In this document: one piece after another, positions 6,900 to 55,167 of the stretch
Numbering within the stretch: position 1 is the stretch's first letter
Layout: each line of letters opens with the position of its first letter
Source: Paraspadella gotoi
Lineage: Eukaryota; Animalia; Chaetognatha
Length of the DNA: 64,000 nucleotides
Assembly (NCBI GenBank): GCA_051294375.1
Contig: CM119264.1
Coordinates: forward strand, 17,605,795-17,669,794
Direction: 5' to 3'
Program-made: the position numbers and the translations under genes
Notes under the pieces: generated by a model
Database searches by the model: none
What the model was told of the DNA's origin: nothing
The model's input: the letters and a program-made list of their open reading frames with translations, nothing else

Positions 6900-7590
6900 A
6901 TCTTCAGGGTTCAACACGACTGGAACCATTTGGCTGGCCAGAAGGGGCGATCAGAAGGAAGGTATCCCCGACGACTCCTCCAGTTTCCGGATGCGCTTCG
7001 GGAGGAGAGGTGTGGAGGAAAGAAAATGCCCGATCGAAGATCAAATCTGGCGAGGCGTCCACACCCTCCGTTGGCGCTCCGCCTTCCAAGAGAAGAAACG
7101 AGCGCACCTTGCGTCAGTTCCTTCGTCGCAAAAAGATCGATGGAGGGAAGTGCCGAAGGTCTGCAGATCTTGACGAAGATCCGTGGAAGGAGATTGCCAA
7201 TCCGCAAAACTAGGACGTCCCCTCGACGCCGCATCGTCACCAAGTTCTCCATCTGCGACAGGTGATCCCGTATACGGATCCCCGGGTATGGGCGATCCGC
7301 CACGAGACTCCCGGCAACCTGTTGTAGCTCCGTCGACACGGGCTGCCGTGCGACTGGAGACAGAGCACGACACCGACTGTCGGCCTACCAAGGAGATGGT
7401 ATCTCAGAGAGCTGCCGAATCGAGAGAGGAAAGATCTTCAACCACCATGAACTCCTTCACATTGATATTTGGTGTATGGACATTGCAGCCTCCCAGGTCC
7501 CTCTGGTGAAGCTCTCCCTGGAAAAGGATGCCCCAACCCTCCTGACGAGGCAATCCGCGTCACTACAGTGGTCGCAATCTTTCTGGGAGC
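6900..7590 (-). pseudogene. DIRS RNase H and methyltransferase-like domains, frameshifted
   Basis: Degenerate TDAS..GWG at ~7530-7560, then RGTW and INVKEF at ~7445-7500. PSIDLFATKE at ~7120-7150 matches the DIRS MT-like PxIDLFA motif. Confidence 0.75.
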
Positions 7591-7869
7591 AGATCGTTCC
7601 ACCGGCGCGGCGGTCTCCAGGACGAAGGAACTGACACCACTCTCAGTCCTCCGCGGCTTGAAGCGTCTAACAGCTGTTGGGCGACTCGAGATCCTTCTGG
7701 AAGTGGTTAGACAGCGTTAGACGTTTCCTTTGAATCCTGGGCGAAGAGTGGTGGCACGGAGAAGCGGAACTTGTCAGCGTGGGCCGCCGATGGCGTGTCC
7801 GAGAAACTGAAGACAAACGCCGCCGGCGGGAGAGACGACGAGAGGAGTAGAAGTCGCTAAACTCGGATC

Positions 7870-8640
7870 GATTACCAACTTGGGCGGCGGAAGGCGAGAT
7901 CTATGAAGTGACGTCCCATGAAAACCGAGGAATCGAAGGACTGAGAGGGGTAGGCTCGACTTCTCCCCGGTGGAGAATGAACCCGCCTCCTGAAGAGCAG
8001 TCTGGACTGCCTTTCAACGTCGCTTGGTGACACTCCTCTTCGATGGCCAATCAGGATGGGGATGTCGTCGATATAGGAAGAGACAACGACATGCCTCTCT
8101 GCCTCAGCCATGAACTAGCGGCGCTTTCTTCGTGAGAGCACGGGCCGTAGCCAAACCCGGAAGGGAAGATAACCTTGTACTAGAAGGAATCCGACCCTTT
8201 CCAAATGAATCGACAAACTTTTCGATGCTTCCTCGTGAAGCGGAAGGGGGAGGATAAGCGCTCGCGTAGGCGATTCGAGGCGCGCCCATCTCCCCGTCGA
8301 AACATCTTCCTGATGTCCTGACCCTTCCATGCGGAAAGACGGAGGTGAAAGAAAAGCGGCGTTTTTTTTTTGAAACGCTTAGGTTGAGAATGGCCTCCAC
8401 CCTCCATCGTTCTTCGGCAAGGAAGATCCTGGAGTAAAAACCGGAGAGGCCTCTACCTCTCGATCGCACCCTTTCTCAAGGCCGGCGCGAGATTTCCGCT
8501 TTCGACCGCGTCGTCCCTCTCGCCGAAAGATGGCGTCGCGTCGGGCAGACGAGAAGACGGGTGGGATGCTCCGCATCGGCGATTCTTGAAGCCCGAATAT
8601 GTTCGTCAAAATTGGAGAGGTCGGCCCGACCAGCTCCTCC
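7870..8640 (-). pseudogene. DIRS reverse transcriptase coding region, frameshifted
   Basis: GFYSRIFL (ORF 8104-8469), NDGGWRP (ORF 8379-8609), LPGLATARALTK, and catalytic SYIDD (ORF 7872-8111) are spread over several frames. Confidence 0.88.
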
Positions 8641-10500
8641 CAAAAGGGGCGAAAATAACGGAGCCTCCCTCCCCCGTAGATGAGGAGAAGGCGCCGGCTG
8701 ATCCAGAAATCGGAGTCCTGAGACCGAAATCCGATCTTGAAGGGTCCTGCAAGCCGGACGAGGCGGCGACTGCATCGGCGGAGAACCCGTTCATTTCGCA
8801 GGGCTTGGTCCCCTGTCCTGCCCGTTTCTCGACTTCTTGAACGAGTAGGGCTTCTTGCCGCTCTTCCGCGGTGTTGAAGTTGGACCTGTCGACGCTTTGA
8901 AACCTTGACGCGTTATTCAAGAAAGCGAGGCGTTGCGGCGGATCGGATTAAAGGCGGCGTCTTGACCGTGACGAAACTTGATCCGGAGCGATTTCCGAAG
9001 AAAAACCTCTCCGGTGGGAGCACGGCGTCCTGCATCGCCCACGCGATCGGACGGCGCTTCGACAAAACCCGAACGTCGAACTTCAACAAGCGCAGCGCTT
9101 GAACGCGGTTGCCTGGATGCGCAATATCGCGTAGCCGGCGAGCCAGCGAGGAGATGCGCTCCACCCACCTATCCGCTGAAATACCCGCCTTGGATGGCGT
9201 CCGACAAAAGGCGTAGTCGTCGGCGACAAAAAGAGCGGCGGTGACCCGACGCGCCCCGGCCTCCTGCATGTGCGGTAAATGTTGACAGGTTAGAAGGAAT
9301 AACTTGGTGTAGATAGCCAGCTTCGGAAGGCGGGATCAAAACACCGTCGTGACTGGAAGTAGAAACGACGCCGGTGAAGGCGTGGTCCACCAACGACGGA
9401 AGGCGCCGAGGTGCGGGAGTTGTGCGAGACTCCAGCTTCTCGCCAACTCCCCTGACTCGAGACGTGACGAAGCGAACGCCATTGCTTCGAACTCCATCAG
9501 ACGGCGACGCCGCTCCTTTGGCGCGGGCTGAAGTCGTAGAAAGGCCGATCGACGTATGGGTCGGACCTACCTCTCATCTCCCGAATGAGGGGTGTTGTCC
9601 AGTCCCGGAGCTGATGCGCTGCCTGTGTGCCGTCCAGGCGGTGAAGGCCGACGCGTTGCGTCAGAGGGCCGAGCAGGAAGCCCGTGGGCGGGACTGCTCT
9701 CTGGGAAGCGAAGGACTGTCAAGGACACCAGCGGCGAGGGAAAGGCGAAGTGAAGTCGTCCGTTTCGAATAGAATTCACATGGAACGTAAGCAAAAAACG
9801 ATAATGTAGATTCACATATCAATGAGGAACCCCCCTTCTTTCTCTCTATCCAGCAAATATTCACAAAAAAGAAATAATTTGAAACTAAACACACAGAAAA
9901 AAACAGAAACGAAACCACACCGCGACCACACCACCCGGAGGGAAAGGGGCGGGCGCGGGCAGAATGTGGGGGTCGTTTTCGATAAGAATCATAATTCGCC
10001 ATTCAGAATACAGTTCTCTTTGCGAAACCCCCCCCAATTAGCATCGTACGAGAAAAACGCGGTATAATCCGTCGATTCGGGCGTAGTGAACAAAATATAA
10101 AAAATAAAAAAACGAAAGAAAGAAAGAAAAGAGAAACAAAAAATTCGATGGATGGCAAATAAGAGAAGCAAAACGACTATCGAATAAAAGAAATCCCACA
10201 CTTAAGCTCACCGGGAAATCTTTCCATCTCCTGGCGAAGCGAATCCCGCATTTCTTGAAAAACCGTTTGAGGGGTCCTTCAAAAACTTCCAGGGCCTCCA
10301 GCCGTGTTTGCGGCTCGCCTCCCAGGGCTGCGTGTGGCTGTCCACCCCCGAACGACACACTGGTGCCGGGTGCAGGCGCGCCCTGCGCGCGCGGCCCGAG
10401 CTCCGTAACCGGGGGTAAGGAGACAGCGCCTAAAGCAGAGGAGGGGTGGAGAGACACCGACCGGGGCGCGAGGCATCTGGGCGACGCAGTCGGCACGTGA
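8600..10500 (-). pseudogene. DIRS ORF1 (gag-like), frameshifted, interrupted by an AT-rich segment at ~9770-10210
   Basis: GC-rich minus-strand ORF pieces upstream of RT. ORF 8913-9269 ends in RRPIAW...LPPERFFFG, resembling the DIRS gag RR..W..LP..LFG motif. Confidence 0.6.
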
Positions 10501-23932: not shown

Positions 23933-24150
23933 GTTATGGTAAGAGCCGGGTTGCCTGTGATGCCCATTGGGATGGGGCATCTCACTGTTGGCTTCCGACC
24001 CTCAGTGACGCCTCCAGTCACTGGCGCGGTTACCCTAGGACGTCGTCAGGTCTGTGGAGTGTGGATGGTACACTACGCTTAGGGATGGTGTGTTCCCCCT
24101 CTGAGCCAGTGAATTTTGGCTGAAGGATGGTGGACGTGAGACGGTGAGAA
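23933..24150 (-). mobile_element. SINE-like retroposon family, copy 1
   Basis: The reverse complement matches 47525-47768 (cagtgactggaggcgtcactgagggtcggaagc; gatgccccatcc.aatgggcatcacaggcaacccggct). Confidence 0.85.
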
Positions 24151-24267
24151 TGTTTCTTTTCTGTTTTTACGGATTGAATCTTTTATTTTATTATTCCTTT
24201 ATATGACATATGATGGAGTTGGACGGTCTATGTCTAAGAAGGGGAGAGGGGAGAGAAGAGAGAGAGA

Positions 24268-27449: not shown

Positions 27450-30048
27450 ACTACTATGACCTTATAGGGTGGGATGACGGAAAACTATCACAGGGCCTCG
27501 CTATCGAGCCAGAACCGAACTACACTATATGAGCTTGAGTAGGCGTGGATGACGGAAAATATCACAGCGCCTCGTATCGAGCCAGAACGCACTACCACTA
27601 TATGAGCCTTAGTAGGGTGAGATTGACGCGAAAATACTCACAGCCGGCCTCGCCTATACGAGCCCAGAACGACTACACTATATGAGCTTAGTAGCGGTGC
27701 GATGACGGAAAATATCACAGGGCCTCGCTATCGAGCCAGAAACGACTACACTATATGAGCTTTAGTAGGGTGGGATGACGGAAAATATTCACAGGGGACC
27801 CTCGCTATCGAGCCAGAACGACTTTACACTATATGAGCTTAGTTAGGCGTGGATGACGGAAAAAATATCACAGGGCCTCGCTATCGACCAGAACGACTAC
27901 ACTATATGAGGCTTAGTAGGGTTGGATGACGGAAAAATATCACAGGGCTCGCTTATCGAAGCCCAGAACGACTACACTATTATGAGCTTAGTAGGTGGAT
28001 GACGGAAAATATCACAGGGCCTCGCTATCGAGCCTAGAACGACATACACTATATGAGAGCTTAGTAGGGGTGATGACGGGAAAATATCACAGGGCCTCGC
28101 TATCGCAGCCAGGAACGACTTACCACTTATATGAGCTTTAGTAGGCGTGGATGACGCGAAAATATCACAGGGCCTTCGCCTATCGAGCCAAACGACTACA
28201 CTATATGAGCTCCTTAGTAGGGGTGGATGGACCGGAAAATATCACAGGGCCTCGCTATTCGAGCCAGAACGACTACCTATATGAGCTTAGTAGGGTGGAT
28301 GCGACGGAAAATATCAAGGGCCTCGCTATCGAGCCATGAACGACTACACTATATGAGCTATAGCTGGTGCGATGACGGGAAAAATATCACAGGGCCTCGC
28401 TATCGAGCCAGAACGACTACACTATATGACTTTGAGTAGGGTGGATGAGGAAAATATCACAGGGCCTCGCTATCGAGCCAGAACGACTACACTATATGAG
28501 CTTAGTAGCGTGGATGACGGAAAATATCACAGGGCTCGGCTATCGAAGCCAGAACGACTACCACTATATGAGCTTTAGGTTAGTGTGGATGACGAAAATA
28601 TCACAGGGCTCGCTTCGAGCCAGAATGACTACACTATTATGAGCTTAGTAGGGTGGATGACGGAAATATCACAGGGGCCTCGCTATCGAGCCAGAACGGA
28701 CTAACACTATATGAGCCTTAGTAGGGTGCGCATGACGGAAAATATCAACAGGCGCCTCGCTATCGAGCCAAACGGACTACACTATATGAGCTTAGTAGGG
28801 TTGGATGACCGGAAAATATCACGGGGCCGTCGCTATCGAGCCAGATACGACTACACTATATGAGCTCTTAGTAGGGTGGCATAGACGGGAAAAGATCACA
28901 GGGCCTCGCTATCGGGCCAGAACGACTACACTATATGAGCTTAGTAGGTGTGGATGACGGAAAAAATAGGTCATCGAAAGCGCGACACATGGCAGTGTGG
29001 GAATCGGCTCGATCGAGCCAGAACGACTTACACTATATGAGCTTAGTAGGGTGGATGACGGAAATATCACAGTGCCTCGCTATCGAGCCAGAACGACTAA
29101 CTATATGGCTTAGTAGGTGTGATGCACGCGAAAAATATTCACAGCGGCGCCTCGCTTATCGGCCAGAACGACTACACTATATGAGCTTAGTAGGGTTGGA
29201 TGACGGAAAATATCACAGGGGCCTCGCTATCTGAGCCAGAACGACTACACATATATGAGCTTAGTAGGGTGTGATGACGGAAAATATCCACAGTGGCTCG
29301 CTTATCGAGCCAGAACGACTACCACTATATGAGCTTTAGTAGGGTGGATGACGGAAAATATCACAGGAGGCCTCGCCTATCAGCACAGAACGACTACACT
29401 ATATGAGCTTAGTAGGGTGGATACGGGAAAATATCACAGGGCCCGCTATCGAGCCAGAACGGACTACACTATTATCAGCTTAGCTAGGGTGGATGCACGG
29501 AAATATCACAGGGCCTCGCTATCGCAGTCCAGAACGAACTACACTATTGAGCTTAGTAGGAGTGGATGACGGAAAATTATCACAGGCCTCGGCTATCGAG
29601 CCCAGAACGACTTACACTATATGAGCTTAGTTAGCGTGTGGATGACGGAAAATATCACAGCCGGCCTCGCTATCGAGGCAGAACGACTACACTATATGAG
29701 CTTGCTAGGTGGATGACGGAAAATATTCAACAGGGCCTCGCTATCGAGCCAGAAACGACATACACTATTATGAGCTTTAGTAGAGGTGGGATGACGGAAA
29801 ATATCACAGGGCCTCGCCTATCGAGCCAGAACGACTACACTATATGAGCTTAGTAGGGTTGGATGACGGAAATATCACAGGGCCTCGCCTATCGAAGCCA
29901 GACACGACTACACTATATTGAGCTTAGTAGGGTGGATGACGGAAAAAATCACAGGGGCCTCGCTATCGAGCAGAACGCACTACACTATATGAGCCTTAGA
30001 GGGTGGATTGACGGAAAATATGCACAGGGCCTCGCATATCGACAGAAC
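27450..30048. repeat. 70-bp tandem satellite, ~36 units
   Basis: Consensus GACGGAAAATATCACAGGGCCTCGCTATCGAGCCAGAACGACTACACTATATGAGCTTAGTAGGGTGGAT repeated head to tail. Units differ mostly by random 1-nt indels; there are no spacers. Confidence 0.97.
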
Positions 30049-30641
30049 GCTCCTTTTTTCTTTTAATTAGATGTAATTGAGCCAACATCCCACCCACCTC
30101 CAGAAATCGTTTTGACTTAATATAATGACTAAAAACTTTTAATTCTTCTCAATTTCCTAAGCTTCATATCTATTAAAATATTTTTTAAAAAATTTTAAAA
30201 AAAGGATTTATGCTGTAATATAATATTATGCGTTTTCATTTTATAAGTTGTATAACCTTTTTTCTTAATATTTGTTTCTTTTTTGTTTGTTTTCTTCTTT
30301 TTTTATTTTAAAATCTTTCTTACTACAATTGCAAATGAGAATTATAACCGTTCATGGGTTTTTAGACCTTTCCCCAGTATGTATCCCTATCAGAAACATA
30401 CAATTCTACATGGGTAGTCTTATCCCTATTGCGTAAAAAATCAATATAACGTTGGCTCCCTCAAAAAATTATCCTTCCCACCCCTTTCTGTTCAGCCTCT
30501 TAGATATTATGATTTTTCATTAATGCGACTTTCTAACAGAAATGATGTGTGATATCTATAGAAAACTAGGACCAAGATAGTAGTAATCTTAACCTTGTGT
30601 TGTTATCTCTCTCTTTNNNNNNNNNNNNNNNNNNNNNNNNN

Positions 30642-37100: not shown

Positions 37101-40100
37101 AGGAAGAAAAATAATCTTTTCTTTTTTGAAAATGCAGTGAAGTCGTGGGGGCGGGGGGGGAGCGGGGGCGGAGAGGAAAAGAGCGTACATCGACGAGAGC
37201 TTTGAAAGGTAAATGAGCTTTGTGTACGTACTTATTACTTAATACTTAACTAGAATATTGTTTCTCTTTATTTGATACTTGAATTTTTTTTTTAAATGAA
37301 TTTTTTCCATCTAATAGAGACACCCTTGAGGAGCGTCTGTTACCACCAGCCAACCTAACGAGGCCAGTCAAGCTTTTGAGTCTTTTCGGACCGACATTCC
37401 CGGGAGACGCTCGCCGGCGACGCGACGCCTCGAAAAAGTTTGGGTGAAGAGACGAAACGCCGACGGCGACTCTGTTTGGAATGGGTGGTGCTGCGACGCC
37501 GCGTTCGTTTAGGCGCTGCGGCGGGGCGGAGCGTGATGCGGCCGCTGGGCTGCGCTCCGAGGGGCGTGGCCAGGATTTAAACGGCCCTCGTTTCACGCGC
37601 GCCGGAAATTCCTCGATTAATCACGCCTTCGGTTTAGCGCCTTTTTTTCTCCCACGGTTTTTGCGTTTATTCCTTCGACGCGTTTGAATTCGGATGAATT
37701 TTATTTATAACTCAGTTTTAAACGAAAGGACGAACAAAATCAACAAATTCTACCCTTAACGATTCCCCTTAGCGGCTACATTTTTTAAAAATGAATGTTA
37801 AAGACTGTGCACTGTATAGTGTATACTGTACACTGGACACTATACACTGTGCACAGTTTACAGGTATAAATCATTTTTCGACTCCTGCTCCTTTTTTTCG
37901 AAAACTTTTCCAAATCCATCAGCACATCCTCGCACCTGCCAAACGCATTCCAGAGACTCAACCCCTACCCTTTCTTCCCGCCCCCGTAACTCTCCCCAGC
38001 CACCGCCCATCTCTGCCCAGCTATCGCTATCCCCGCCCAACCCCTACCTCCGTTGCGGCAATTTGTCGGAGGGCTGCCTCCTTGACTTTTCCCACACAAT
38101 TAACCGCGCATTATTCATTGAGGCTCATTATTGCCAGAGCCTACTAAGTTGGCTGGAGTCGGGGAAAGATGAAAAAAAAAACTTTTCTGAAGGTTTTTTT
38201 TTCTTCTTCTTTTAGAAAATCAACTCGTTGGCGCCGATTTCCCTGCGAAGAAGTCACAAACAACTTTGTTTGCAAGTTTTGAAAATTTTCTTTTTAAATA
38301 AGAGACCACGATAGATTCACTTGATGAAAAATAAAGTCCGTCTGCAAAAAAACTTAAATATTTTTCAAAGAGCATGATCATAAATAAACCTTTTTTTCAT
38401 ATTATTATGATCCAACAGCTATATAGAATTCGCCAGAAACGAAAGAACAAAATGCGATTAAAAATTACAAATTACATATTATGTTACTTCCAGAAATAAT
38501 TTGTTTTTTTCTGTTATATTATTGGCATGAAAAGACCAAATCAAACCATTTACTATTACAAATTCGTTTGGCTTTGATTCGACTAAGATTTCATCACTCA
38601 TAACGACCAATAAAATATTTCAAATTCCACCGTCAGGCGTCGGATAATCCGTTAAGCGTTCGATCCCGCGACCTCCGCTTTTCGCTACCCTTGCCCCGAG
38701 GTCAATCCTTCGTGTCAAAGGTCACGTCCACAGAGGTTAAACGTCCCGACCTTCAAGATCTGACTGGACTTACGTTCAATTAAGGCGCCCGGATTTTCCT
38801 ACGAGGTTGATGTGTGAGGCGCGAGAGGCGGTCAAGCGCCGGCTGGAAAGCTGGATCAAAGGAAAATTGTAGGGTGAGGTATTTGTGGGTGGGTGGTTGA
38901 TTCAGGGTGAGGGGTGGTTGAACATGGAGATGGGTTTTCCGACAATGTCTTTGAACGTCTAATGTCTTTTAAAGTCGACATCGACTTCATCGTCGACTTG
39001 AACGGTTTCGTCGAACACATCGTCTTCATCGTCGGATTCGTCGGCCGGTGTGTCGGCCGTATCGGCGATTCCGGCGGATGTTTCGGCGATTCCGGCGGAT
39101 GTTTCGGCGGCGTTGCCGCTTTTGTCGGCGGCGTCGGTTGGATTGGCGTCGACTGTCGACGTCTCACGTTTGAAGCGACGACAGAAACGAGAAGGCGATG
39201 GAGAGAAAATTGAGGCGGGCGTGGAAATTGATGGCGCGGACGCGAAGGCGCCGCCGGGGACGTCGGGTCATAATAATGAGGCGAAAAGGGACATGGCGGC
39301 CATAGCGAAGCGACCGCTCATAATCAAGCGCTCAGTTCGGAGGGCGAGACTGGGCGAGACATGGTAAGATAGGGTGAGACAGGGAAAGACAAAGCGAGGT
39401 AATGCAAGTAGATAGGGCGGGAAAAAGAGCCACAGTGCTGAAGAATACATCGCGTTGAGTCGAGGGTCAACAACATCTGCTACGAATATAATAAAATTCG
39501 CAGTTATCTATGAATTTAAAAATGAAACATAGGTGTGGCGTCATATGTATAGCAGATTTAATTCCGGATGTTTTACGAAGCCTTTGAAAACCGAAGAAGG
39601 ACCTCGAGGAAACAATATAGAAAACCGAATTTAGCGCCGCCGTCCAAAGGGCGCCTTTCGAGGGTGCCGCCGAAAAAAAAAAAGGTGCTCTCGTTAAAAG
39701 TTTCCTTCGCTAATCGATTCGCTCGCGATTTGCATAAGAAAATCGAATTCTCGTTTGAAGGTCGAACGGAATTCCTCGAATCCACGACCGGAAAGAATGG
39801 GAGTGGGCGCGCCGGAAGTCGTGAACCGGGCGGAAAACAATCAGGAGATCAGGGAATCCCGCGATCCAAAATCCGAGTAGTTGTCGTGAGCAGTTTTAGA
39901 GAGCTGTGGAAAATGTGACCGTAGAGCCCAATTGCAAGGGCGGCCTTTTGCGTGGCGTAATCTCGGCAAAGCTGTGTCCAAGTTATATCGGACGTTTTCG
40001 TTATTTTCTTTAGACAATAAACAATCGCCTTTTTTAGTTTTCGGCCGTCGTCGTCCTCGGCGTTGTCACGTTCGTTGATTCCGTCGACAGATTTCGTTTG

Positions 40101-40621
40101 TCTTTGTTGTTATTTTTTTGGTAACGAGATTACTACGTTATCCGCCAACAGACAGTAAAGACAGAAAACAGTAAACTTCTGGCTTGAGAGTTAGATAAAA
40201 ATATATATGAAATTGGTATATTTTATTTACTGCAATTATTATATATAAAAAAGTACTAGGAATGCGGGAACCACGATGTTGTCGTCGTCCTCGAAGACAT
40301 TTACATTTATGAGATGCGACGCAACCATAATAATTAAAGAGGTAAACAAAACTCAACCCAAACATTAAGACGACCATTCTTTTCAACGACCACCAGACTT
40401 TGTGTCGTCATTGTCGTCTCGATAAAGTCACTAGCAATATCATCAAGACCTTCGCCTTCCTCAGCATCTAGAGGGAATCATGGAAACCCTTGTCTTAGCG
40501 AGTTCTTCTCGACGGTGAAATAAATGTGGAAGTATGGAAAGGCGCAATGGCGAGGAGGCGTCGAACGGCATAATAAGAAATGAATGATGAAAGAAAAAAA
40601 AGAAAGAGAGAGAGAGAAAAA

Positions 40622-40666
<45 letters not shown>

Positions 40667-41047
40667 AAAAAAAAGAGAGACAATCATGACAAAACGCAAA
40701 TTGAGTCTGGGCCTCTGCCGCGCCCTCTGGAGCCAAACCGCGAAAGCTAGCCTGCTCTTTTTTTTATATATATATATTTATTCCTTGTTTCGCTTGTTTA
40801 TTTTGGCAAAGCAAAAAGTTGATGGAAAGTTAAGTTTACTATGAATAAAGAGGGATTAGACAAGTTAAATATAAAGTAGATCTTAAATATTTATACGTCG
40901 TTTAAAGAAAACGTAAAGGCAATTCTTTTTTCGTGTTTGCATCAATATGAAATCCCCGCGAATAACATAACTCTGACAGGAAGAGGATAAGAAATCGCTC
41001 AGGCGGAAGGCGTTAGTAATGACTGCAGCACTTCGGGGGGCAAAGAG

Positions 41048-41164
<117 letters not shown>

Positions 41165-41177
41165 AGAGAGAGATAGA

Positions 41178-41220
<43 letters not shown>

Positions 41221-43588
41221 AAGAGATATGGATTGCCACTAAAACAAAAAAATGGCGAGGGCATATTATTGGAGAAATGAAATGTAGAGTTCGTCCATCA
41301 AGCTGCAGAGAAAATGGGTTCTTTTTCTCACTCTCGCCAACAAGTGGCTCTTTTTAGGAGGAGGTCGTGAAGGGAAAGTGAATGGTGGGGTTTTTCCGGG
41401 TCGAGAGGCCGGAGTTGATGGCGTCGGTGAGGTGGAATCGCTGTGGTAGTGCTGGAGTAGATGAAATGAAGACGTTTGATGGAGATCTCAGATAATCTCT
41501 GAGCTATCCCTAGCGATCCATAGCAAAAAACGCCAATGGAGCTCCGAGACGGATGTTCACTGATAAATGCCCATTCTAAGAACTCAGGAGCGAAGCCATT
41601 TAAGCATGACTTAAAAGAAGCATCTTTAAAGTGACGTGACATGCTAATCCGGGCTTAACGAGCTAAACTAAAACGGACTACTAATAAATTTGTACAACCC
41701 ATCTAACAATTACGAGGATATACGAGGAAATATCATCCACTCGAGTTTCAAAATGATTCGCCCCTGAGGGGAAAGAGCGCGAAAAAGAGTGAGGCGCTTC
41801 TCCTCTTTTTTGGTATTCAGACTTGAAGGAGTCGAATCGATGATTCATTTCCGGAAATAGAAATTTTTTTGCATTCATCATTTTGCGTTCATCAATTCTC
41901 GTTCATCGCGTTTCATTCATCATTCTTTTTTTTTTCAGCTAAATGCATAGGAGTACTTTCTTTTCGTTTCAGATTTAAATTGTATGTTAGTTGATTGCCA
42001 ACAAGGCGGGATATTTTGAGTTTAAGGCGTTAAAAAAAAGGAAAGAAGAATAATGGAATGATTGGGGACAGAGGACGAGAAAGTCGCAAAAAGGAGGAGG
42101 AGGAGGAGGGGGAGAAAGGAGGAGGAGGAGGGGGAGAAAGGAGGAGGAGGAAATGAGGAACAAAAAAAAGAGCAAAAAGGATTTGGTGAACCGAAAGAAA
42201 AACAAAGGTCAGGCCATCGTAACGCCTAATATGATCTCCAGTCTCTCCGTCAAGGACGAAACACCATAACCATTATCGAATTTGTCACAACGTTGATACC
42301 GATTTTTTTCATTACCGTATTTATTAATATGTATGTTCATTCACGCTTCAATTTTTTTTGGCAATAGGAAATTTTGGACACGTTTTTATAATAATGGTTA
42401 AAATAATCTCGTCATTAAGCTATCCTCCCTTCTATCCCTCTATGACTCTATGCCTGAGCGGAGGCGCAAATGCGAAGGATTGGCCTTCGTATTTTTTTTA
42501 TGTTCGCTCATCGTCGCTGATCCTCGTCCCCCTTTCACCAGGTCTTTCACCCCAAAAGGTTTCTCCGAATTTCTCACACCCCGCACCCCCCCCTCTCTTC
42601 CTTTTTTGACTCAATCACACCCCCGAATAAAAATATGGTCGCCCCCTTGACGTTTAAAACCCCGGCTCTTTCAGACGTATTCCGACTAAGCTCGGCGCCT
42701 TCCGATTCGCGTAACGCCGTCGCGGACGCGTTCCCGCCAGAAACCAGGTTACGCGACAACCGAAAGTCGCGGCTCTGTTCGGCGCGGCGAGGATCGGCGG
42801 CGTCGGCGCCTTTCGCCGGCGGCGTTGGCTTTCGGCGTTGGCGGCCTCGGCGGGCTAATTCTTAGGATCGTTTATCTTCGTCCGGTTATCGGAAAAAATC
42901 TGGAAATCCATGAATCAAACATGAATTTCCGCGGCTGTCGTCATCAACGTCGAAACCACGGTGACCTCTGGCGACCGGTGGGGGCGGAGGGGGCGTAATG
43001 CAAGGGACAAGGAGTAGGGGAACCAATGAAGGGATAGGGGAGCGGAAAAAAGAAAGAGAAAAAAAAGGGGAAGAGGAGGTCGAGAAGAACGCGGTTTAGA
43101 GAGCGAGGGGGATGGAGAAAAAGAAGTAGTTAAGACTTAACTTAAGTGAGTCCTCAGTCAGCGGAGCTTAGCAGTGTTACTGATAAATATAAACCATGTC
43201 CAAATAAGTATTGTTATTACTTCCCGGTTTACTTGCAAATATTACTTCAAAATGACATCCACTATAAAAATTCAGGTTTTACATCACTCTACCAGATGGT
43301 GGAGGCAGAAGGGTGTTTCGCTTAAGGGAGTTCCGTGTAGATAACAGATGGTTTCAATTTTTCGTTGCGTTCGTGATCGATGACTTCTCATCGGAGTTAA
43401 AATGGAGGATGAAAAGTTGGCTCAAGAATACGAATAGGAACGTCGTTTGTGCGCAATTTAAAAAAAAGAAGAAGAAAAAATGAAGATAAAAAAAAGGATA
43501 TAAGTTATTGTTAATTTGAAATTGAGGTTAAGTTAATTTCTAAATTCCGAAGATGCGCAAACCTATATGCCTTTTTCACCTCCGTTTG

Positions 43589-43691
<103 letters not shown>

Positions 43692-44280
43692 CCTCCCTCT
43701 CTCTCTCTCTGAGCTGTGGTAATATTTACTATTCTCCTTGTTTACAGCGATCATAAAGGAGGCTCGTCCCCGAGAGAGGAATAAGTCTTCTTCTATTTCG
43801 TTGCTTTTTGGACCAAAATAGAATTCGTGCATCGTGAGGATTTTTTCCTGCCGCGTCTTAGGAGGTCAGTCTCTCTCCCCAGATCCAATTTTATACCGAT
43901 GAATTTTTCGCATCAATTTGGCAGTATTTAAAATAAAGACACACGTACGTATCACTTATTTGCTGCAACGAAATACAACAGATGCAATGAAAAAAAGTCG
44001 AGTTAAAACTAGAAACTTATGGATAAGCACTGATATTACGTTAAAAACATGACATCCAAAAGCTACGGAAAATAAAAAGTAATTACAACAAATACATAGA
44101 AAGAAAACCAGATGAAGTGAAATCAAGAGGCAACGAAAAAAATCGGTCTCTTTGTTTAGGGAGGACGGCGGGTGCTTAGCAACCGACAAAAAAGACGAAA
44201 CGCCCTCTTGAGTCATCATCCGGCGGAAAAGAAAACAAAAAAGATGATTTTCCGAACTTCAATTATTGGGACCACAGGAA

Positions 44281-44344
<64 letters not shown>

Positions 44345-44467
44345 AACACCCAGACACCTTAATTCCCCAATATTCTGTTTTCCATATTATCTATTCTTCT
44401 TCTTTCATTCGTTTTTGTAGAAACTAATTATTAGAAATGATTTCTAGAGAGAGAGATTGTATGTGTG

Positions 44468-44497
44468 AAAGAAAGAAAGAAAGAAAGAAAGAAAGAA

Positions 44498-44529
<32 letters not shown>

Positions 44530-44555
44530 AGAAAGAAAGAAAGAAAGAAAGAAGA
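44468..44555. repeat. (GAAA)n microsatellite
   Basis: Direct inspection. Confidence 0.9.
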
Positions 44556-46148
44556 AAAAAAAAAAAACCAGCAGGTTATTCTTTTTTTTCGTAAGTTAAT
44601 TTAATTACTTTCTTTCCCACGGAATTCATGGGTTTTCATTAAATGAAGAGAGGAAGATGAAAATATAGATATGAATTGTGGAGTCGGGGAGAAAGGGAGA
44701 GAAAGGGGTAGAGGGAATACCTGGAGGTCTTTGAGGTTTGAGGGGTGAAGGGGTGAAGAGAGTCCGTTTAAGGAGAGGAATACAGGAAAAAGACGACGAC
44801 GAATCGGGTTAAATGTATAGAATAACCATTAAGTAGGAAAAAAAGAGTCAAGGTCATGTCAAGGACATTCTAATTTGGAGAAAAGGAAAAACGGGAAGAA
44901 AGTGGATCAACGATTTCGGAGTCATTTCGCCGTGAAGAACATTTTTTTTCCTCTTTACAATGGATACAAGGTCACACACTGAAACCCTCCGCTAGAAAAA
45001 ATCGTCATTTGCAAACCTATAAAGATTTTTTTTAATTTGAAAGATTTTTTTTTGTACTAAAAAATAAAATCATTTATATACCCAAATTTTATATTGATTG
45101 GTTATGATTTGACCTAGCAATGGGCGGAGAAAAGTTTCCTTTAAAAAGTTATTTCATTTTAAAACTCAAATTTTTTTAAAATCTTTTTGTTTAACTTTCT
45201 GAATATTTTTTAAAGAACTTTTACATAAAAACGTATCAATATTAATAACTTCTAAAAGCTCTTGAAAATGACATATTTAAAAATATGATAATATAAAAAT
45301 AAGCCTAACCAGCTTAAATTTAATCAAGGTAATCAAAATTGAAATAATAAAATCTAATTTTTTTTTAATATCTGACCTATTTTAACTATAATGATCTAAC
45401 AAATTAGCTTGAAAAAAACTAATTTAAAATTTTTAATTTAACAATTCTTTTAGTTTGAATTTTATTTTATAGTTAAAACTGGACCATCTAATTTTCATAT
45501 TACAGTATTTGTAATTATGCTATTCTCTTTATATTTTGAAGAGCAGAAGATATTAATATTGATACCTTTTTTTTAAATTTTTTTATAAAATATTCAGATA
45601 GACAAAAAGATTGAATAAAAAAAATTTCGTTTTAAAATGAAACTGTATTTTCCTTGAACATTATAACAATGAGAAACAGACAATAGGGAAATACAGAGGG
45701 AGCGCAAGGCGACGACGACGATAACAATGCTTAGTAACAAGGTACGCTACACTCCACTCATTTCCAAGTCAAATCAAAACTAATCGATTTAAAATTTGGA
45801 TATATTAATGATTTTGGTTTTTACTACAACGGTGATTTTTTTCTAGAGTCGGGTTCCAAATGTGTCACCTTGTAAGTTGATGACCGTCGGGCAAAATGAG
45901 ACTTGAAACTTATAAAGCGGACTGGCGGTAGGGAGGCGGTTAAGTTAAGTCTTTAACTGTTTAGAGTAGCATGAACAATTTTGAACATTGAACAAATGAC
46001 AAATGGGTTAGTTGGAATAACAACGAAGAACAAATTATTGTATCGTAATAAAATCGAATCGTGCAATTCGATTATTCTCTCGTGGTACGAAAAAGATTTA
46101 ATCAATTTGACAAGATTAGAAATTAAATGAAACAAATTAAGGGACACT

Positions 46149-46330
46149 TGTGGTGGTATATCCACACCGCCTCACATCCGCCATCGTTCAGTCAATACCA
46201 TTGGCTCAGAGGGGCAGGCGTTACGTTCCATCCACAGTCCTAACAACTTCTCCTAGGGTGACCGCACTAATGGCAGTGAGATGCCCCAACCCAATGAGCA
46301 TCACAGGCAACCCTGCTGTTCGAAAAAATA
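46149..46330 (+). mobile_element. SINE-like retroposon family, copy 2 (internally deleted)
   Basis: tgtggtggtatatccacaccgcctcac...cattggctcagagggg...ttccatccacagtcctaac...cctagggt...cagtgagatgcccca...gcatcacaggcaaccc.gctgtt plus an A-rich end. Lacks the central hairpin. Confidence 0.8.
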
Positions 46331-47309
46331 AAACTTTTAAATTAAGAGCCTATTTTCTTATTTCAAAAGCCGAGTTGCTTTTCTTCTCTCTACTCTATCT
46401 CTTTCTTTCTTTTTTTTTCCTCTCAATCTTATTCAATCTCTCAATCTCTCAATCTCAATTTTACTCGAACACTAACATTATATTTATACTTTTTCGTTTT
46501 AGCGAAAACAAAGTTTAGAATTTGTATTACAACGATTTTTATTTAAAAATTCTAAACTTTGTTTTCGCTAAAACACCAAAACAACGAAACGAAAGGAATA
46601 ACACAATATGGCTACTTTTTCGTTATACTGTTTCACTTTTGTTTTGTTTTGTTACCGTAACAATCTTGATATGAAATAAAATTCTCAAAAATTAGGTTAA
46701 TTAAGTTAATTTGAGACTTTTTGTAGACTAGGAAATTCTAGGTGCAAAAAATAAATAAATTAATAAAAAAAAAATAATAAAAAAAACCCAACTAATTTCC
46801 ATTCAGCCGCCAGACATTCGGTGCGTCTGGGTGACTTGTGAAAAACGTTTCCCAGGCCTAATCCTCTTTACACGGGATTTTAGTCGAAATTTCAAAATTT
46901 TCGCCGTTGCTCTGCTTTTTTTTTCAGACCACTCGAAATCTTCCACGAGAAATTTTTTTTTTCGACGATATTTTTTAACTACTTTTCCTTTTTTCTCTTA
47001 AATTTCGTTTAAATACGAAAAGGGGCACCGATTCTGATTCCTAAGCGACGACGGGGGCTGCTTAGCAACGGCAGCTGCGAAAATCCTTGCAATTAAAAGC
47101 ATTCGATTAACATTCGCCTTTTTCTCTCTTCTTTTTTTTTTTCTGAAAGCGTTGGTGTTTCCGCCCGACACGAATAAAAAAAATAAAATTAAACGATACT
47201 AATTTTATTAGTCAAGAAAAGTGTCATTGCTATTTCTTCAGTTATTTTAATTTATTATTAACATAGACTACTAAACGGATGTAAACGAAGTGGTTAAGCT
47301 AAGACGACA

Positions 47310-47780
47310 GCCATGGACCGGAAAACCCGTCGATCAGGACTTGAGGCGACTCGCAGAATGAACTAGCACCGAAGCCACTATAAATCTCCGATTCTGCGAA
47401 GGATGAATTCGGAACTCACCTCTGAAGAATCTGACTTGATCAAAGAATTCCAATTAAAGTGGGATGGAAGAGAAACGGAAGAGGTCCTACAGGAGGTAAT
47501 TTGGGAGATAATGTGGCGGTATATTCACACCGCCTCACGTCCGTCATCCTTCAGCCAAATCCATTGGCTCAGAGGGGGAACACACCATCCCAAGCGTAGT
47601 GTTCCATCCACAGTCCTAACGACTTCCCTCTGTGTTGGCAAAGCGAGACCGTCCTAGGGTAACCGCGCCAGTGACTGGAGGCGTCACTGAGGGTCGGAAG
47701 CCCCCAAAGCCAACAGTGAGATGCCCCATCCAAATGGGCATCACAGGCAACCCGGCTGTTGCCATAATAAATTAATAAAA
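47310..47780 (+). mobile_element. SINE-like / 5'-truncated non-LTR retroposon, copy 3 (longest), with 11-bp TSD
   Basis: Flanked by the direct repeat CTAAGACGACA (47299-47309 and 47781-47791), with an A-rich tail ataataaaattaataaa. The 3' 260 bp are shared with copies 1 and 2. Confidence 0.85.
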
Positions 47781-47984
47781 CTAAGACGACATTTGAGACT
47801 ATACGTCAAAAACGAAAATTGCTTTCCTTAAGGTTGTACATTGTAAAATGAACAACGTGCAGTGTAAACATTGCGTGGGCATAATCTTTCAATCTTGAAC
47901 TCGTTCATTCTTTCAGCTGCGTTTAATACCTTTTTGGTTCGTTTCGGTTATTCAATAAAACTCCTTAGATTTTTTTTTCCTCAG

Positions 47985-48286
47985 CTGCGTCGAATCCACG
48001 AAATTCTCAAGACTCGACTCGAAAAGTACGAAGAATTTCTCGAATGGAAAAGTGAAAAAATCAGCCGATCGGAAAGTAAACGAAATGGAAGCGGAGGCGA
48101 AGAATTTCCGAGCGAAAACGAAGAAAATGGAAGCGAAAGTGTGAAAAATGGAAGGGCGGACGATGGCGGGGAAAGCCAAGGCTTAACGAAGGCAACGCGA
48201 TTCGGCGACGTCGCAAATGGCGTCGGTCGCCGAGACGTGGAACTCACTTTCTACGACGCTCGTTCGAAAGAGTTTGTTCCCTCGAG
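47985..48286 (+). CDS. NAS: NAS-like gene, first identified exon (LRRIHEILKTRLEKY...KEFVPS)
   Basis: Acceptor ttttttttcctcag| and donor AG|gtaagg. The following 73-nt intron contains a ttctaac branch site. Confidence 0.7.
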
Positions 48287-50254
48287 GTAAGGGCTTTCGA
48301 TCGAATTTATTTCGTTTGAGATTCTAACCCCCTATCGAACTCCATCTCCCGCCACCCAGTCGCGCCCTCTCTCCATCTCCCGAGATCGACGCCGCCCTAA
48401 ATTCTCTCGTCGCCGTCTCCCTCTCACTCTTTTCCCCGCGACGCCGCCTCGACCTCTTCGCCGCGATCGCCGCCGACGCCTCCGACGCCGCTATCGTCGA
48501 CGATCTTCGTCGCGCCGCCGTCGCCGCCGAAGAAGCGATGGAGGACGACGCCGTGGACGCCGTTTTCGCGGCAATGGAGGTGTCGGGCGCGAAATGGCGC
48601 CGGGATGTGGAAGCCGCGGCGATAGAGTGGAAGGATTTGGAAAAGTCGTTGGAGAGCATCGGGGTAAAAACGAAGCAAATTGGGGAGAAGGAAGAAGAGG
48701 AAACGAAGAAAGATGAAGATGAAAATATGGGGGAGAGAAAGTTGATTCGAAATCGATTGTGTTCGAATTCGAATTCGAATCAGAAGAGGGAATCACGATC
48801 GACGCTTTCCTCCTTTTCCTCTCGCTCTCTCTCTCCTTCTCTTCTCATCGTTTCTCGATCCCAAGCGGAGCGAATCTCTATCCTCCACTCTCTCGTCGTG
48901 TCTCTCCCTTCTTCCTTCGCCTCTCAACGTCGCTTTCTCCTCGAGAATCCAACTCCCTTCAAGTATTTCCAGAACTACGTGTCTCTGGTCGCCGCTGAGT
49001 TAAGGTGAGTTCTTTGACGCTATTTTCCAACTGACCATTTCCGTTCCTAATCCTTTAATTTATTTTTAACTGTAATAATTTGATATTTAGTTACTATTAT
49101 CTATTTTTAAATGTTTATTCCAATTCCTAACATTAATTCTTAACCTTAACCTAATCTTTAGCCTAATCATTAACCCTAATCCATAACATAATCCCTAACT
49201 TCTAACCTAATTTTTAAACTGAAAAAAAAACTTGATTTGAGCAGAAATGGGGCGGTTTCGGAAAAGACGGCCAGTTCGTTAACATTCAAGTCAAAGATAG
49301 CGATCCCACCCACTCACCCGACGAGTGGCACTTTCCAGGTTGTTGGAAGTGGCAGCGGAGCAGATGGAGCCGGCGGCGACGATATCGTCTCAAAAGACGC
49401 CGCTCCTCCTCTCCTCGCTTCGTTTCGCCTTCGTCGGCGCCGGTTTTCCCTTAACCGGCGTTCTCTTGCACGTTCTCACTTTCGGCGCTCGCGTGACGCT
49501 CGTGGAAAGAGATTCGTCGGCGGCGGAGCGTGGGCGGCGGTTCTTGGCGGCGACTGAGGCGGCGGGGGTGACGCTGCGTGGAGCGGTGAGGGTGATTGAG
49601 GCGGACGGGGAAGAAGTGAAGTTCGTGGGCGGAGGTGGATGGGAGAAAGCGAGGGGAGGAGGAGGAAGAGGAAGAAAAGCGAATGGATGCGACGTTGATT
49701 GCGTTGATCGCGACGATCTTATAGACCGAGACGACGACGACGACAACGACGACGAGAACGACGACGACTTTTTATATGACGATGACGACGACAATGCGGA
49801 CGATGGTTTCACGAACGGCGCGACGGATACGTTGAATGATTTTCACCGTCTCCATGGCAACGTTGGAGGATCTCATTGCGGCCCAATTAGCAATACAAAA
49901 GAAATCAACAGCAGGTTTACCTTAAAAGAATACAAAATTTAATTTTCTTTTTTTTTTTCAAACATCTTCAAACCAGTTTTGTAATCGTTACTTAATATTA
50001 CGTCACTAAACCATTTCCCTCCCGATGATTTCATCTCATTTTAACTTCCCACACCATCAAAGTGTCTCAAGTCTCAGTCCCTCTGGTCCCTCAAGTCCTC
50101 AAGTCCTCAAGTCCCTCAGGTCCCTCAAGTCCTCAAGTCCCTCAAGTGTCTCAAGTGTCTCAAGTCCCTCAAGTCCTTAAAGTCCCTCAAGTCCCTCATG
50201 GCTTCATCCTCTTTCCCCTCGACACGTTTCACTTTTCATTCTCTCTCTCTTTCT

Positions 50255-50307
<53 letters not shown>

Positions 50308-50661
50308 TCCCTTCCTCTTTCAGTTTTCCTTCAACTCTTCGCTTCACCGTCGTCGCCGACGTCGTCGACATCGCCAGCGCCATCTCCGCCGACGTCTCGA
50401 GGCGTCTCTTCCGCCGCAACGCCGTCGACGCGCCCGTCATTCGAAAGCGCAACGTCCACGGAATCTCGACCATCCTCTACGAGAGGTTCGAGCTCGACGA
50501 CGACGACGATACGACGACCGAGTTCGAGCTCGTCGGAGAAGTGGTGCCTCCGCAGAAGCTGCTCAGCGGCGCCGCCCCCAAGCGGCTCGTCGTCGGACTC
50601 ACCTCCGCCAAAAACATCAATTCCTGTCAAGTCTACGTAAACCGAAGATTGAGAGGTGGGC

Positions 50662-50705
<44 letters not shown>

Positions 50706-50726
50706 TCGTCGCTCGTCCGAAGTTGA
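47985..50726 (+). CDS. NAS: Nicotianamine synthase-like (NAS/CntL family, SAM-dependent aminobutyl transferase) spliced gene. Exons 47985-48286, 48360-49004, 49339-49914, 50324-50726; 5' exon/start codon not identified
   Basis: Three phase-2 GT-AG introns join 1926 nt into an unbroken frame of 641 aa plus stop. Colinear NAS blocks: ALSPSPEIDAALNSLV; LRRAAVAAEEAME; PFKYFQNYVSLVAAELRLL; RFAFVGAGFPLTGVLL..GARVTLVERD; ADVVDIAS; RNVHGISTILY; FELVGEVVP; NINSCQVY. Confidence 0.85.
48360..49004 (+). CDS. NAS: NAS-like gene exon (RALSPSPEIDAALNSLV...PFKYFQNYVSLVAAELR)
   Basis: Acceptor cccag| and donor AG|gtgagt; in frame with ORF 48538-49008. Matches the plant NAS LSPSPEVDALFxxLV and FPYYxNYVxL motifs. 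Confidence 0.88.
49130..49212. repeat. Degenerate (CCCTAA)n-like hexamer repeat in NAS intron
   Basis: taaccttaacctaatctttagcctaatcattaaccctaatccataacataatccctaacttctaacctaa. Confidence 0.6.
49339..49914 (+). CDS. NAS: NAS-like gene exon (SAM-binding Rossmann motif RFAFVGAGFPLT, then an acidic insert)
   Basis: Acceptor ctttccag| with upstream actcac; frame of ORF 49325-49942. Donor AG|gtttac is phase 2 and less certain. Confidence 0.82.
50060..50198. repeat. 8-9-bp (GTCCCTCAA)n minisatellite in NAS intron
   Basis: About 15 imperfect units; source of the VPQ-repeat start of ORF 50062-50640. Confidence 0.85.
50324..50726 (+). CDS. NAS: NAS-like gene terminal exon (VVADVVDIAS...RNVHGISTILY...NINSCQVY, poly-Gly tail)
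   Basis: Acceptor ctctttcag|. The open frame has strong third-position C bias and continues into ORF 50541-50726. Matches the NAS C-terminal DVV, RSAHGARxFLY and VINS motifs. Confidence 0.85.
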
Positions 50727-52482: not shown

Positions 52483-54019
52483 TCATGAGCGATGAATGAC
52501 GTTAATAATCGCACGAGTAGGCAAAACAGTTTCTTTTCGTGTTTTGTTTCCCACAGTTTTTTTTCCACTGTTATGTTTTATCCGACTTTGTTTCCTACTT
52601 TGCTTTTCGCATTCGTCAGGATTTTTATCTTTCTTTTCACTCTTAAGGAATCCAGATGATGTGCCGGTCTTGTCTCCCTTTATATTTCGATTACTGTTTT
52701 GTTTCACGGTTTTCTGCTTCTCGTTTTTCTTTTCGTGTCGCGTCGGTTTCACGCAAGTCGATCGATCTTTTGGTTGCGTCTTTCGATTGTCATTAACTTC
52801 TCCTCCGAATCTGTTCTTTTGTTTCAACGAAGCGCTAGAACGACGTCGCTCTCCATTCAGCTTTGGAGTCTCTTTGTCTGTAAGACCCACTCGATCGTTG
52901 TAAAAATTGTTGTTGTTGTCGTCGTCGTACAGCGACGTCATGGATTCTAAATCGTCGTCGTCTTCCTCTTTTTCCTTTTCCTCCTTTTCTTTCTTCGCTT
53001 TCTCCTCTTCTTCTTTCTTTTTGTCCAAATTCAATTCTTCCCCACATTTGAGGCAGTAATAAAGATTTTCGGTTCCTCTGAAATATCCTTCCAGCATTAG
53101 GTTTTCTTTGCACCTGTCAAACAAAGTACTCAGTACTCATTTTTGTTACAACGAGGATCGATGAATTTGTAACCACCTGGTGCAATTGAAACACTGCGTG
53201 TGATATCTAACGTTTTCCAATTCGACGTACATGACTCCGGGCAAAAGCTTCTCGTGACAAGTGGCGCACTTCCGTAGAAAAAATTCAAGGTAGCACGCCC
53301 TGTTGCGATGATAATATTAAGGTGAGGGTTTCTTGTTCAAAACGCTATTCATTATACCTAAATGTAACCAAGTTGTTTACGTCGATGTACGTCTTACTTG
53401 CAATAAGGATTATTATCTTTCAACATGTATTGTAAATTCGCGAGGAAATTTGTCTGACATCTAAAACATCTTAGGCATTCCGGGTGATATTGATGCGTGT
53501 TGAACACAACCTCAATTCAAAAATTGGAGAAAAGTTAACAATTATCCTTATTAGCCGCTACCGTTGATTCGTGCTTACTTTCAATTCCATAACGGGTTTT
53601 CTGCATCTCCAGCATGGCTCGCGCTCTATCAAGTAATTGCAACACAAGCAAAGCAATTCGCCGTCGATTTCAAGAAATCCTTCGGGTCCAGAAACAACCT
53701 TTAAATTCGATATATACATGAAACGTTTTGTCCTCATATACATAAATATCCAGCTCATTAAGATTTTACGATGGATAGATTCAGTTTTCACCATTAAAAA
53801 AGGATTCGCTTAATAAAGTTAATTAATACAATGAATTTTAATTGTACCCGATACCTTTTGACATCGTTGGCACTTGACGCATTTCGCGTGAAACGCCCTT
53901 CCGTCACGAAGGAAGATATTCGGCTTTCGTAAGATTTTCGCTTTGCAGGCGAAACAAGTTGAATGATCGGGCAAAAGACTTTTCTTCTTTGGGTCGAATA
54001 TCAAAGGAAATTCTTGCAT
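52483..54019 (-). CDS. Three-LIM-domain protein (383 aa) with acidic/basic low-complexity C-terminal tail. Exons 54019-53855, 53698-53579, 53510-53398, 53299-53177, 53113-52483
   Basis: GT-AG introns in phases 0,0,2,2 give an unbroken frame. LIM1 CFAC..HAKCVKCQRC..CLCC; LIM2 CWRC..HPECLRCFRC..CKAC; LIM3 CATC..HTQCFNCTRC..CLKC. The 3' end could splice further. Confidence 0.9.
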
Positions 54020-55167
54020 CTCTTTTCCGTGAAAAAAAAAGTGATAAAAAAAAAGGGTGAAAAAAATTTTAAAATAAAATAATATCTAGAAAAAACGAAA
54101 TGCCTAACAACAAAAAAGTAGCGCAAAGATGAAACGAAATATTTTTTTAAAAATTGTCCTAATTACAACTTGGTATTCCATTTATCCAGATTTTCATCAC
54201 ATGATTTCTTTTCACCGAAAATACCTCGAAACTTCTGATAATATAATCGTTCCGTTTATGTAATAAATTCGGGTCTCTTCGGCAAGGTTAAAGTTCACCG
54301 CATTTTCATGCATGACTACCCAAACCTAGAATTATAAAAAAATAAACAGGATCGATCCAAAGCGAGCGCGCGTCGATCATTCAATTCATTTCAAGTTCTA
54401 GACTTGCATAATGAAAACGGACAAAAGAGTTAACATTTTTTTTATAAAATATTTATTTTTAAAAAATAAAAAGGATTTGACATGTATATTTCGTTGAGGA
54501 AACAAAGACAAAAAGGACTTAATAAGCATTCCCGAGCGAATCTGATGGAACACAGCTCGTTTTTGTCTTTCCTCCTTTCGCGTTGGCAGGAATGTCGAAA
54601 CTCCCCTTTTTTTCTTTTTTTTCTCATTTTTTTTCACTTTTTTTTTCGCTTTTGGAAAGAGATTTTTTTCAATCAGAGCTGAAACTCTGATTTGCTTGTC
54701 TAGTGAGCGTCAACACTGGAACAGCAGTAAATTTAACAATTCCTTACCAGCCCCGCCTTACCTTAATGCTTTCTTTTTGCCATTTTCCTTCCCTCTTATT
54801 ATTTTCCATTTCCCGAACTTTTTTTTTTCGTTTCTTTAATCCCCATCAAATAGCGATTTTCCTCCTTTCTTCTTTCTCATTTTTACTGTTCCTTTTATCC
54901 TTCACCTTTCCTCTTTCCTTCCCTTGTATTTTTTTAGTTCCTCCTTATTTTTCACATATTCCCTTTCTTCTATTTCAAATTCCTTTTAGCCCCCCTCTGT
55001 TTACTTCGATGGACTTTTTCTCTTTCAACCTTTCTAAGGCTTCAATGTCTTTTAATTGTTATCGAATGCTTCGTAGTGCTCGCATGTTAATTTCGGAAAA
55101 CTGGGCTATATGCAACCGTCAAAAACAAAACAAAATGTGAAAAATATTAGTATCTGACTAACATTCA

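Follow-up and report, generated by a model that had tools for sequence, protein, structure and literature searches.

A spliced gene of a divergent nicotianamine synthase-like clade in Paraspadella gotoi, with relatives in ctenophores

The stretch of Paraspadella gotoi contig CM119264.1 considered here ("the window", 64,000 nucleotides) carries, on its + strand, a gene that, judged by its sequence, is a spliced member of a divergent clade of nicotianamine synthase (NAS)-like proteins. Its five exons and four introns (the first exon and its junction are putative) would specify a protein of 672 amino acids, most likely an NAS-like aminocarboxypropyl-transferase: a divergent variant of a known enzyme family which, by the same kind of comparison, is present in ctenophores as well as in this intron-bearing host. 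Among what is new here, the ctenophore members stand firmest. We give a probability of about 0.6 to the further proposal that the protein transfers the aminocarboxypropyl group of S-adenosylmethionine (SAM) to the amine of an amino acid, making a nicotianamine-like chelator that would buffer cellular zinc or iron.

The gene is broken up and must be spliced to be read. The four exons at 47985-48286, 48360-49004, 49339-49914 and 50324-50726 join into 641 codons closed by a single terminal stop; the other two frames of the same joined sequence hold 17 and 13 stops. The introns that separate them (48287-48359, 73 nt; 49005-49338, 334 nt; 49915-50323, 409 nt, with a 9-nt tandem repeat and (TC)33 inside) are all GT-AG and all of phase 2, and each has a length of 1 mod 3, so that the reading frame depends on splicing. 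In a sequencing run that is putatively RNA (X9), one contig skips the 73-nt and 334-nt introns at GT..AG and a second contig skips the 409-nt intron; a DNA run from a different study (X4) spans 47900-49758 unspliced, with the first two of the three introns retained. The gene is thus both integrated and spliced. (A point of detail: the spliced contigs listed leave the final 75 nt, stop codon included, uncovered, and no single contig spans the gene.) The gene stretch is present in nine runs from three studies, all under one organism label; the matches in two runs from other organisms (X10 and X11) are to repeats only, at 80% likeness. Splicing and the nine same-organism runs exclude bacterial contamination. 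An earlier note on this DNA, written from its letters alone, had proposed four exons, three phase-2 introns and an open frame of 641 residues, and had argued that the gene was no contaminant; joining the exons and the X9 contigs, in which all three introns are skipped, bear it out on each count. Five exonic variants were found, too few for a test: three change amino acids within a low-complexity insertion and two, in the last exon, are silent.

What that exon model missed is the beginning of the protein. No start codon is found close to where the four-exon frame begins, and an X9 contig extends 368 letters upstream of 47983. A first coding exon at 47403-47495 (31 codons from an ATG at 47403, beginning MNSELTSEE), followed by a 489-nt GT-AG intron of phase 0 (47496-47984), probably supplies it. 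The predicted donor after 47495 (exon end GAG, intron start GTAATT) ranks first among the 335 GT sites in 40000-47940 when scored with the N-terminal profile of the family (32.3 bits, against 23.4 for the runner-up and 16.5 without an added exon), and adding the exon raises the score of the whole protein against the clade profile from 315 to 329 bits. The X9 contig shares the AG at the predicted junction with 47985, its match beginning at the acceptor side. A donor at 47832 is ruled out: its frame meets a stop 13 codons upstream, and there is no ATG. Within this first intron, at approximately 47504-47780 on the + strand, sits a repeat that resembles a short interspersed nuclear element (SINE; 77-91% identity by blastn) and that the earlier note had placed beside the gene; further copies lie at 23934-24151 and 46149-46320. 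The 11-nt duplication CTAAGACGACA, found near 47300 and 47781, was rejected as its target-site duplication, since it would enclose the first coding exon; that other copies of the repeat begin only near 47504 disfavours it further. Upstream of the main ATG, an open reading frame of 17 codons (47313-47366) has a strong ATG context, is in frame with the main ATG and stops at a TAG that lies 36 nt short of it. Provided that the transcript includes this frame, it may have a part in regulating translation.

How is so divergent a protein recognised? The search with exon 5 found one relative (P0001, 49% identity across 93% of the query), from which 29 proteins were reached. The clade includes a hypothetical protein of the ctenophore Mnemiopsis leidyi (KAL5256692.1, on a 20.9-Mb contig) as well as a model and a second piece from Pleurobrachia bachei (sb/3464002, sb/3473345); these two ctenophores are the only taxon-labelled eukaryotic relatives, and their proteins are unannotated. 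They have the motifs of the clade and 47% identity to the window protein over the C-terminal block. Against a profile of 25 relatives the 672-residue spliced protein matches, at the 329 bits already given, in five colinear blocks. A profile search of 1.84 billion representatives finds 196 proteins at E<=0.001. Pfam NAS (PF03059, curated cut-off 27.1 bits) matches 13 of 28 clade members at E<=0.1, the best at 1.8e-8, and its cut-off is exceeded by the relatives P0029 (28.4 bits) and P0032 (34.5 bits). The Mnemiopsis protein has no Pfam match, and a scan of three proteins against NCBIfam gave none. (A large sister group of NAS-like proteins of 350-520 residues, P0095-P0181, is homologous along its length to the clade, with an hhalign probability of 99.9.) A one-off transfer into this organism, as the earlier note would have it, is not supported: the same clade is found in Mnemiopsis, in Pleurobrachia and in many further sequences.

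The fold of a relative ties the clade to the NAS family. A profile of 54 relatives finds only two enzymes in the PDB at E<=0.01: the thermonicotianamine synthase of Methanothermobacter thermautotrophicus (MtNAS; PDB 3FPE, 3FPJ; 5e-20) and CntL, the staphylopine aminobutanoyltransferase of Staphylococcus aureus (PDB 7C7M, 7C9M; 6e-8). The model of the Mnemiopsis member (predicted local distance difference test, pLDDT, 88) has the two-domain fold of MtNAS, on which it superposes with Z 23.9 and a root-mean-square deviation of 2.7 over 262/265 residues. CntL is the second-best fold (Z 19.2, 255/259 residues, 12% identity), and the next methyltransferase follows at Z 14.0. A wide structure search of 48,161 chains returns the same order (Z 23.4, 16.2 and 13.7), and Foldseek agrees. 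The helical N-terminal domain and class I Rossmann domain of MtNAS and CntL are accordingly seen on the Mnemiopsis stand-in, with which the window protein is colinear. With P0001 as query, a structure search of the ESM Atlas ranks a plant NAS cluster first. The NAS-family identity asserted in the earlier note is supported through the Pfam matches of the clade and the fold of a relative, for which MtNAS and CntL come out far above other methyltransferases; single exons of the window have no Pfam NAS match.

The protein retains a catalytic Tyr, a pair of Glu residues and a putative SAM loop. LSPSPEID, AEEAME, PFKYFQNY, AAELRLL, FVGAGFPLT, DVVDIASA, RKRNVHG, LYERF, VVPPQ and NINS occur along the protein in the order claimed beforehand. 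Exon 2 (covered by an X9 contig) would provide the first helix of the NAS N-terminal domain, followed by an acidic low-complexity insertion. Exon 3 holds LSPSPEID, the Glu pair in AEEAME (E189 and E193 of the 672 residues), an insertion, and PFKYFQNY with Y338; exon 4 holds the putative SAM-binding loop FVGAGFPLT (378-386), the strand-2 acid in VERD and a Gly/Asp-rich insertion; exon 5 holds DVVDIASA, RKRNVHGISTILY, VVPPQ, NINS, a poly-Gly tail and the TGA stop. All nine residues that are invariant across the 54 relatives are retained, the Glu pair, a Tyr, GxG, an Arg and a further Tyr among them. In FxYxxNY it is the final Tyr, Y338 of the window protein and invariant in 54 rows, that aligns with MtNAS Tyr107, and FVGAGFPLT and VERD align to FIGGGPLPLT and VEIE of MtNAS (the GxG loop of the clade is without the Pro of MtNAS GGGPLPLT). 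The invariant ExxxE has the spacing of E73/E77 in AtNAS1, E189, four residues before E193, being the likely equivalent of E73. Glu81 and Tyr107 are described as the catalytic pair that deprotonates the acceptor amine in MtNAS (PMC10491745), and AtNAS1 is reported to require E73, E77, Y106 and the sequence VGMD (PMC10248798). In plant and fungal NAS (PF03059; AtNAS1), the ExxxE and the Tyr have counterparts in the clade, and Yxx-hydrophobic (YVSL) and LL follow.

Bacteria also carry members of the clade. Scanned with a pattern, 185,579 species genomes gave 21 candidate stretches, two of which were confirmed: one in Alphaproteobacteria bacterium UBA6187, which we take to belong to the Rickettsiales, and one in a bin labelled Neisseria. 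Profile searches find the family in 7 of the 301 genomes of UBA6187's order, in 1 of 38 in the family of the Neisseria-labelled bin and in 2 of 400 in that bin's class (one further genome of the class went unscored). On viral contigs none of 20 candidate stretches was confirmed, and one locus (L005) is a chance motif match. The bacterial set comprises ten loci in nine genomes. At four of the ten, a Pfam-confirmed DUF4198 gene adjoins the NAS-like gene or is fused to it (a fifth locus has a short look-alike without a Pfam match), and at one of the ten feoAB lies one gene upstream. DUF4198 is described as a periplasmic zinc-capture protein (PMC12663993). No CntM-type opine dehydrogenase (PF10100) exceeds the cut-off in any of five bacterial carrier genomes, which may be incomplete, and none is seen in the window; in this the clade differs from CntL. 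The bacterial context points to metal handling, by a route that would not be that of staphylopine.

Two side observations belong here. In L014:280-2031 and in P0093, DUF4198 is fused before the NAS-like domain and the N-terminus is signal-like; such a fusion might end up in the periplasm, a compartment not expected to contain SAM. At L018:4340-9994 and L019:5212-10319 there is a conserved run of an HGSNAT-like gene, the NAS-like gene, DUF4198 and a 512-residue protein without a Pfam match.

How might the enzyme work? By analogy with MtNAS, CntL and AtNAS1, SAM would bind at the FVGAGFPLT loop, Glu193 and Tyr338 would deprotonate the acceptor amine, methylthioadenosine would be released, and one or more such rounds would yield the product; its role with metals is suggested by the bacterial neighbour genes. 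The N-terminus is acidic and has no hydrophobic signal stretch, so the enzyme would be cytosolic.

A number of findings weigh against a chelator as the product, or against so close a reading of the active site. The Mnemiopsis member is only 19% identical to MtNAS, and the proteins of the clade, at 380-710 residues, have several insertions. VGMD, the plant motif close to the reaction chamber that nicotianamine itself requires, is not kept in the window protein: the corresponding place, presumably, to go by plant context, reads ISAD. The acceptor may therefore differ, and for want of VGMD we do not class the window protein with the true nicotianamine synthases, those of plants and fungi that take SAM as sole substrate; most members of the clade, too, fall below the Pfam cut-off. 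The equation of E193 with MtNAS Glu81 comes from spacing and conservation, the PDB alignments beginning at residue 83-84. Single exons of the window were searched too: exon 4, whose best PDB sequence match is thermonicotianamine synthase at E 0.028, finds no match among longer proteins; exon 5 finds only poly-Gly noise in the PDB; and exon 3 alone recalls HEAT-repeat look-alikes in the ESM Atlas, at low recognition, and, when folded alone (pLDDT 74), gives no structure match of Z>=5 (MtNAS comes 44th, with Z 2.8), an uninformative outcome. The DUF4198 link is not made up of independent instances, eight of the ten loci coming from one order, and some members of a bacterial side branch have signal-like N-terminal peptides. 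Finally, an HGSNAT-like acyltransferase lies within about 3 kb at six of the ten loci, hinting at a different end product.

This last point is the natural starting place for a different proposal: that the protein is an aminocarboxypropyl-transferase whose acceptor is not a metallophore at all, and that it instead modifies a secondary metabolite, a lipid or a peptide, in bacteria possibly acylated later by the HGSNAT-like neighbour. The large clade-specific insertions and the five carrier genomes without a staphylopine-type opine dehydrogenase over the cut-off would suit it, and molluscs are described as making bursatellin with an unrelated aminocarboxypropyl-transferase (PMC11869996). We nonetheless think it rather unlikely: the characterised NAS-fold enzymes, as they are presented in PMC10491745 and PMC10248798, all make a metallophore or its precursor, and the fusions to DUF4198 in L014 and P0093 speak for metal. 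Still less credit, and in our judgment very little, is due to the idea that the NAS fold here serves an ordinary methyltransferase or a non-catalytic ligand-binding protein. Such a protein would sit well with the Pfam NAS silence of the window exons and the Mnemiopsis protein and with the signal-like N-termini of the bacterial side branch; it would leave unexplained why the alignment with MtNAS runs its full length, NAS-specific helical domain included, and scores ten Z units more than that with methyltransferases, and why the Glu pair, Tyr, GxG, Arg and second Tyr are invariant. An aminocarboxypropyl transfer that makes a nicotianamine-like chelator is the reading that we retain.

Where did the gene come from? 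The trees consist of clade members only, with plant, fungal and archaeal NAS left out and most rows without a taxon, and the window protein, a long branch of odd composition, is a poor subject for them; this too counts against reading much into its position. (Near-duplicates were removed: P0007, P0008, P0013, P0021, P0023, P0030 and P0034 from the quick tree onward, P0010 from the insertion comparison and the careful tree, and P0024 from the insertion comparison.) The careful tree, made with the 672-residue protein, ends in a three-way fork between the window protein, a 9-row group with the known bacteria and a 13-row ctenophore group; the last, two of whose 13 rows are named, includes both named ctenophores at 98/99 support and leaves the window protein outside. 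FastTree pairs the window protein with P0083, a fragment that seems to start with a translated intron, the end of which coincides with that of the window's 73-nt intron. Loci in bacterial context lie on several branches outside the named-ctenophore group. A bacterial origin of the clade is likely, because bacterial loci occupy outer branches and because the gene is rare; most likely the clade passed from bacteria into eukaryotes long ago, in one event or in several, and the host gene would since have acquired four or more introns and long loops of low complexity. Members that are probably eukaryotic (L004:1-1893; P0028, P0030 and P0056) are nested in the bacterial group, which suggests another transfer into a eukaryote; there are exon-like fragments as well (P0088, P0147, P0174, P0175 and P0194).

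Two histories of the window gene compete. It may be a fast-evolving orthologue of the ctenophore genes, descended vertically from one ancient acquisition, either within ctenophores or from an early animal, most phyla having lost it: a serious possibility to which we would give somewhat less than an even chance. The highest phmmer scores of the window protein are to the ctenophore-containing group (208, 198 and 195 bits; the best bacterial row has 190), in the quick tree it falls with the ctenophores in a 21-row clade (Shimodaira-Hasegawa-like approximate likelihood ratio test, 93), and the approximately unbiased (AU) test does not reject the union (p 0.40 and 0.21). Set against these are the strong support in the careful tree for a ctenophore group without the window protein, and the absence from the window protein of a 70-residue PExFG segment and a C-terminal extension, which the ctenophore group and most rows of the bacterial one have in common. 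Alternatively, a separate transfer from bacteria, perhaps by way of a protist, may have brought the gene into the host lineage in parallel with the ctenophore one, a proposal that we would also place a little below evens. The insertion pattern, unlike that of the ctenophores, fits it, as does the fit of the tree, whose log-likelihood is 1.34 higher when the window protein is held with the bacterial group (AU p 0.51); this union is likewise not rejected. The probably eukaryotic P0028, P0030 and P0056 within the bacterial group make repeated transfer plausible, and repeated transfers of NAS are documented, according to PMC12454661, for plants and the whitefly. The long branch, however, weakens any placement, and an insertion can also be lost: P0029 is without the PExFG insertion and yet groups with the ctenophores.

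The surroundings of the gene can be dealt with briefly. The window is gene-poor and rich in repeats and microsatellites. A multi-exon gene at 52483-54020, on the minus strand and so transcribed toward the NAS-like gene, would encode roughly three LIM domains and a tail that is acidic and rich in Lys; Pfam matches LIM on two of its exons. Few genes, many repeats, tandem LIM domains and SINE-like copies suit an invertebrate, though LIM domains occur outside animals too, and neither that gene nor the microsatellites would prove an animal host. Of 50 other candidate frames of the window, 49 have nothing over a Pfam cut-off, and Rfam and tRNA scans of the window gave no matches. At 27450-30050 lies a tandem array with a unit of about 73 nt and many small indels among its copies, possibly unpolished long-read sequence. 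A GC-rich island (57-58%) at 5900-10500, with broken frames and no Pfam match over the cut-off, is perhaps a decayed transposon.

To our knowledge, animals manage zinc and iron by means of proteins and glutathione, not with amino-acid chelators of their own making. A 2025 paper names the whitefly as the sole metazoan with an NAS (PMC12454661). The NAS-family gene of that insect, Bemisia tabaci, came into an animal horizontally and is described (PMC12454661, PMC9599486) as plant-derived and recent, with 63% identity to its best plant match; the nearest relatives of the present clade, in contrast, are bacterial, not plant, and the clade is common to two ctenophore genera. Our literature searches found no paper that joins ctenophores with nicotianamine or metallophores, and none that joins nicotianamine with Rickettsiales. 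In a paper on horizontal gene transfer in Mnemiopsis (PMC6005172), the word "nicotianamine" is absent from the main text and one supplement; a 2026 bioRxiv preprint (10.64898/2026.08.27.747422) has a tree that includes Metazoa and a main text without the word "ctenophore", and its supplements might include a ctenophore sequence.

Comb jellies are among the earliest-branching animals. It is tempting to suppose that ctenophores and the present host make their own nicotianamine-like chelator with an enzyme that came from host-associated bacteria near the root of the animals, was retained for hundreds of millions of years and was lost in most phyla. Taken whole, this is an unlikely story; if it were true, an animal metallophore pathway would have been hiding below the Pfam threshold. 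The gene leads, in any event, to an NAS-like clade, overlooked by profile searches, in two or more genera of ctenophores, and Mnemiopsis, as a laboratory model, makes the question directly testable. There is, moreover, a new product to be sought in this clade, because the plant-type Glu pair is kept and VGMD is not, and because the bacterial partners are a zinc-capture protein and a membrane acyltransferase rather than CntM.

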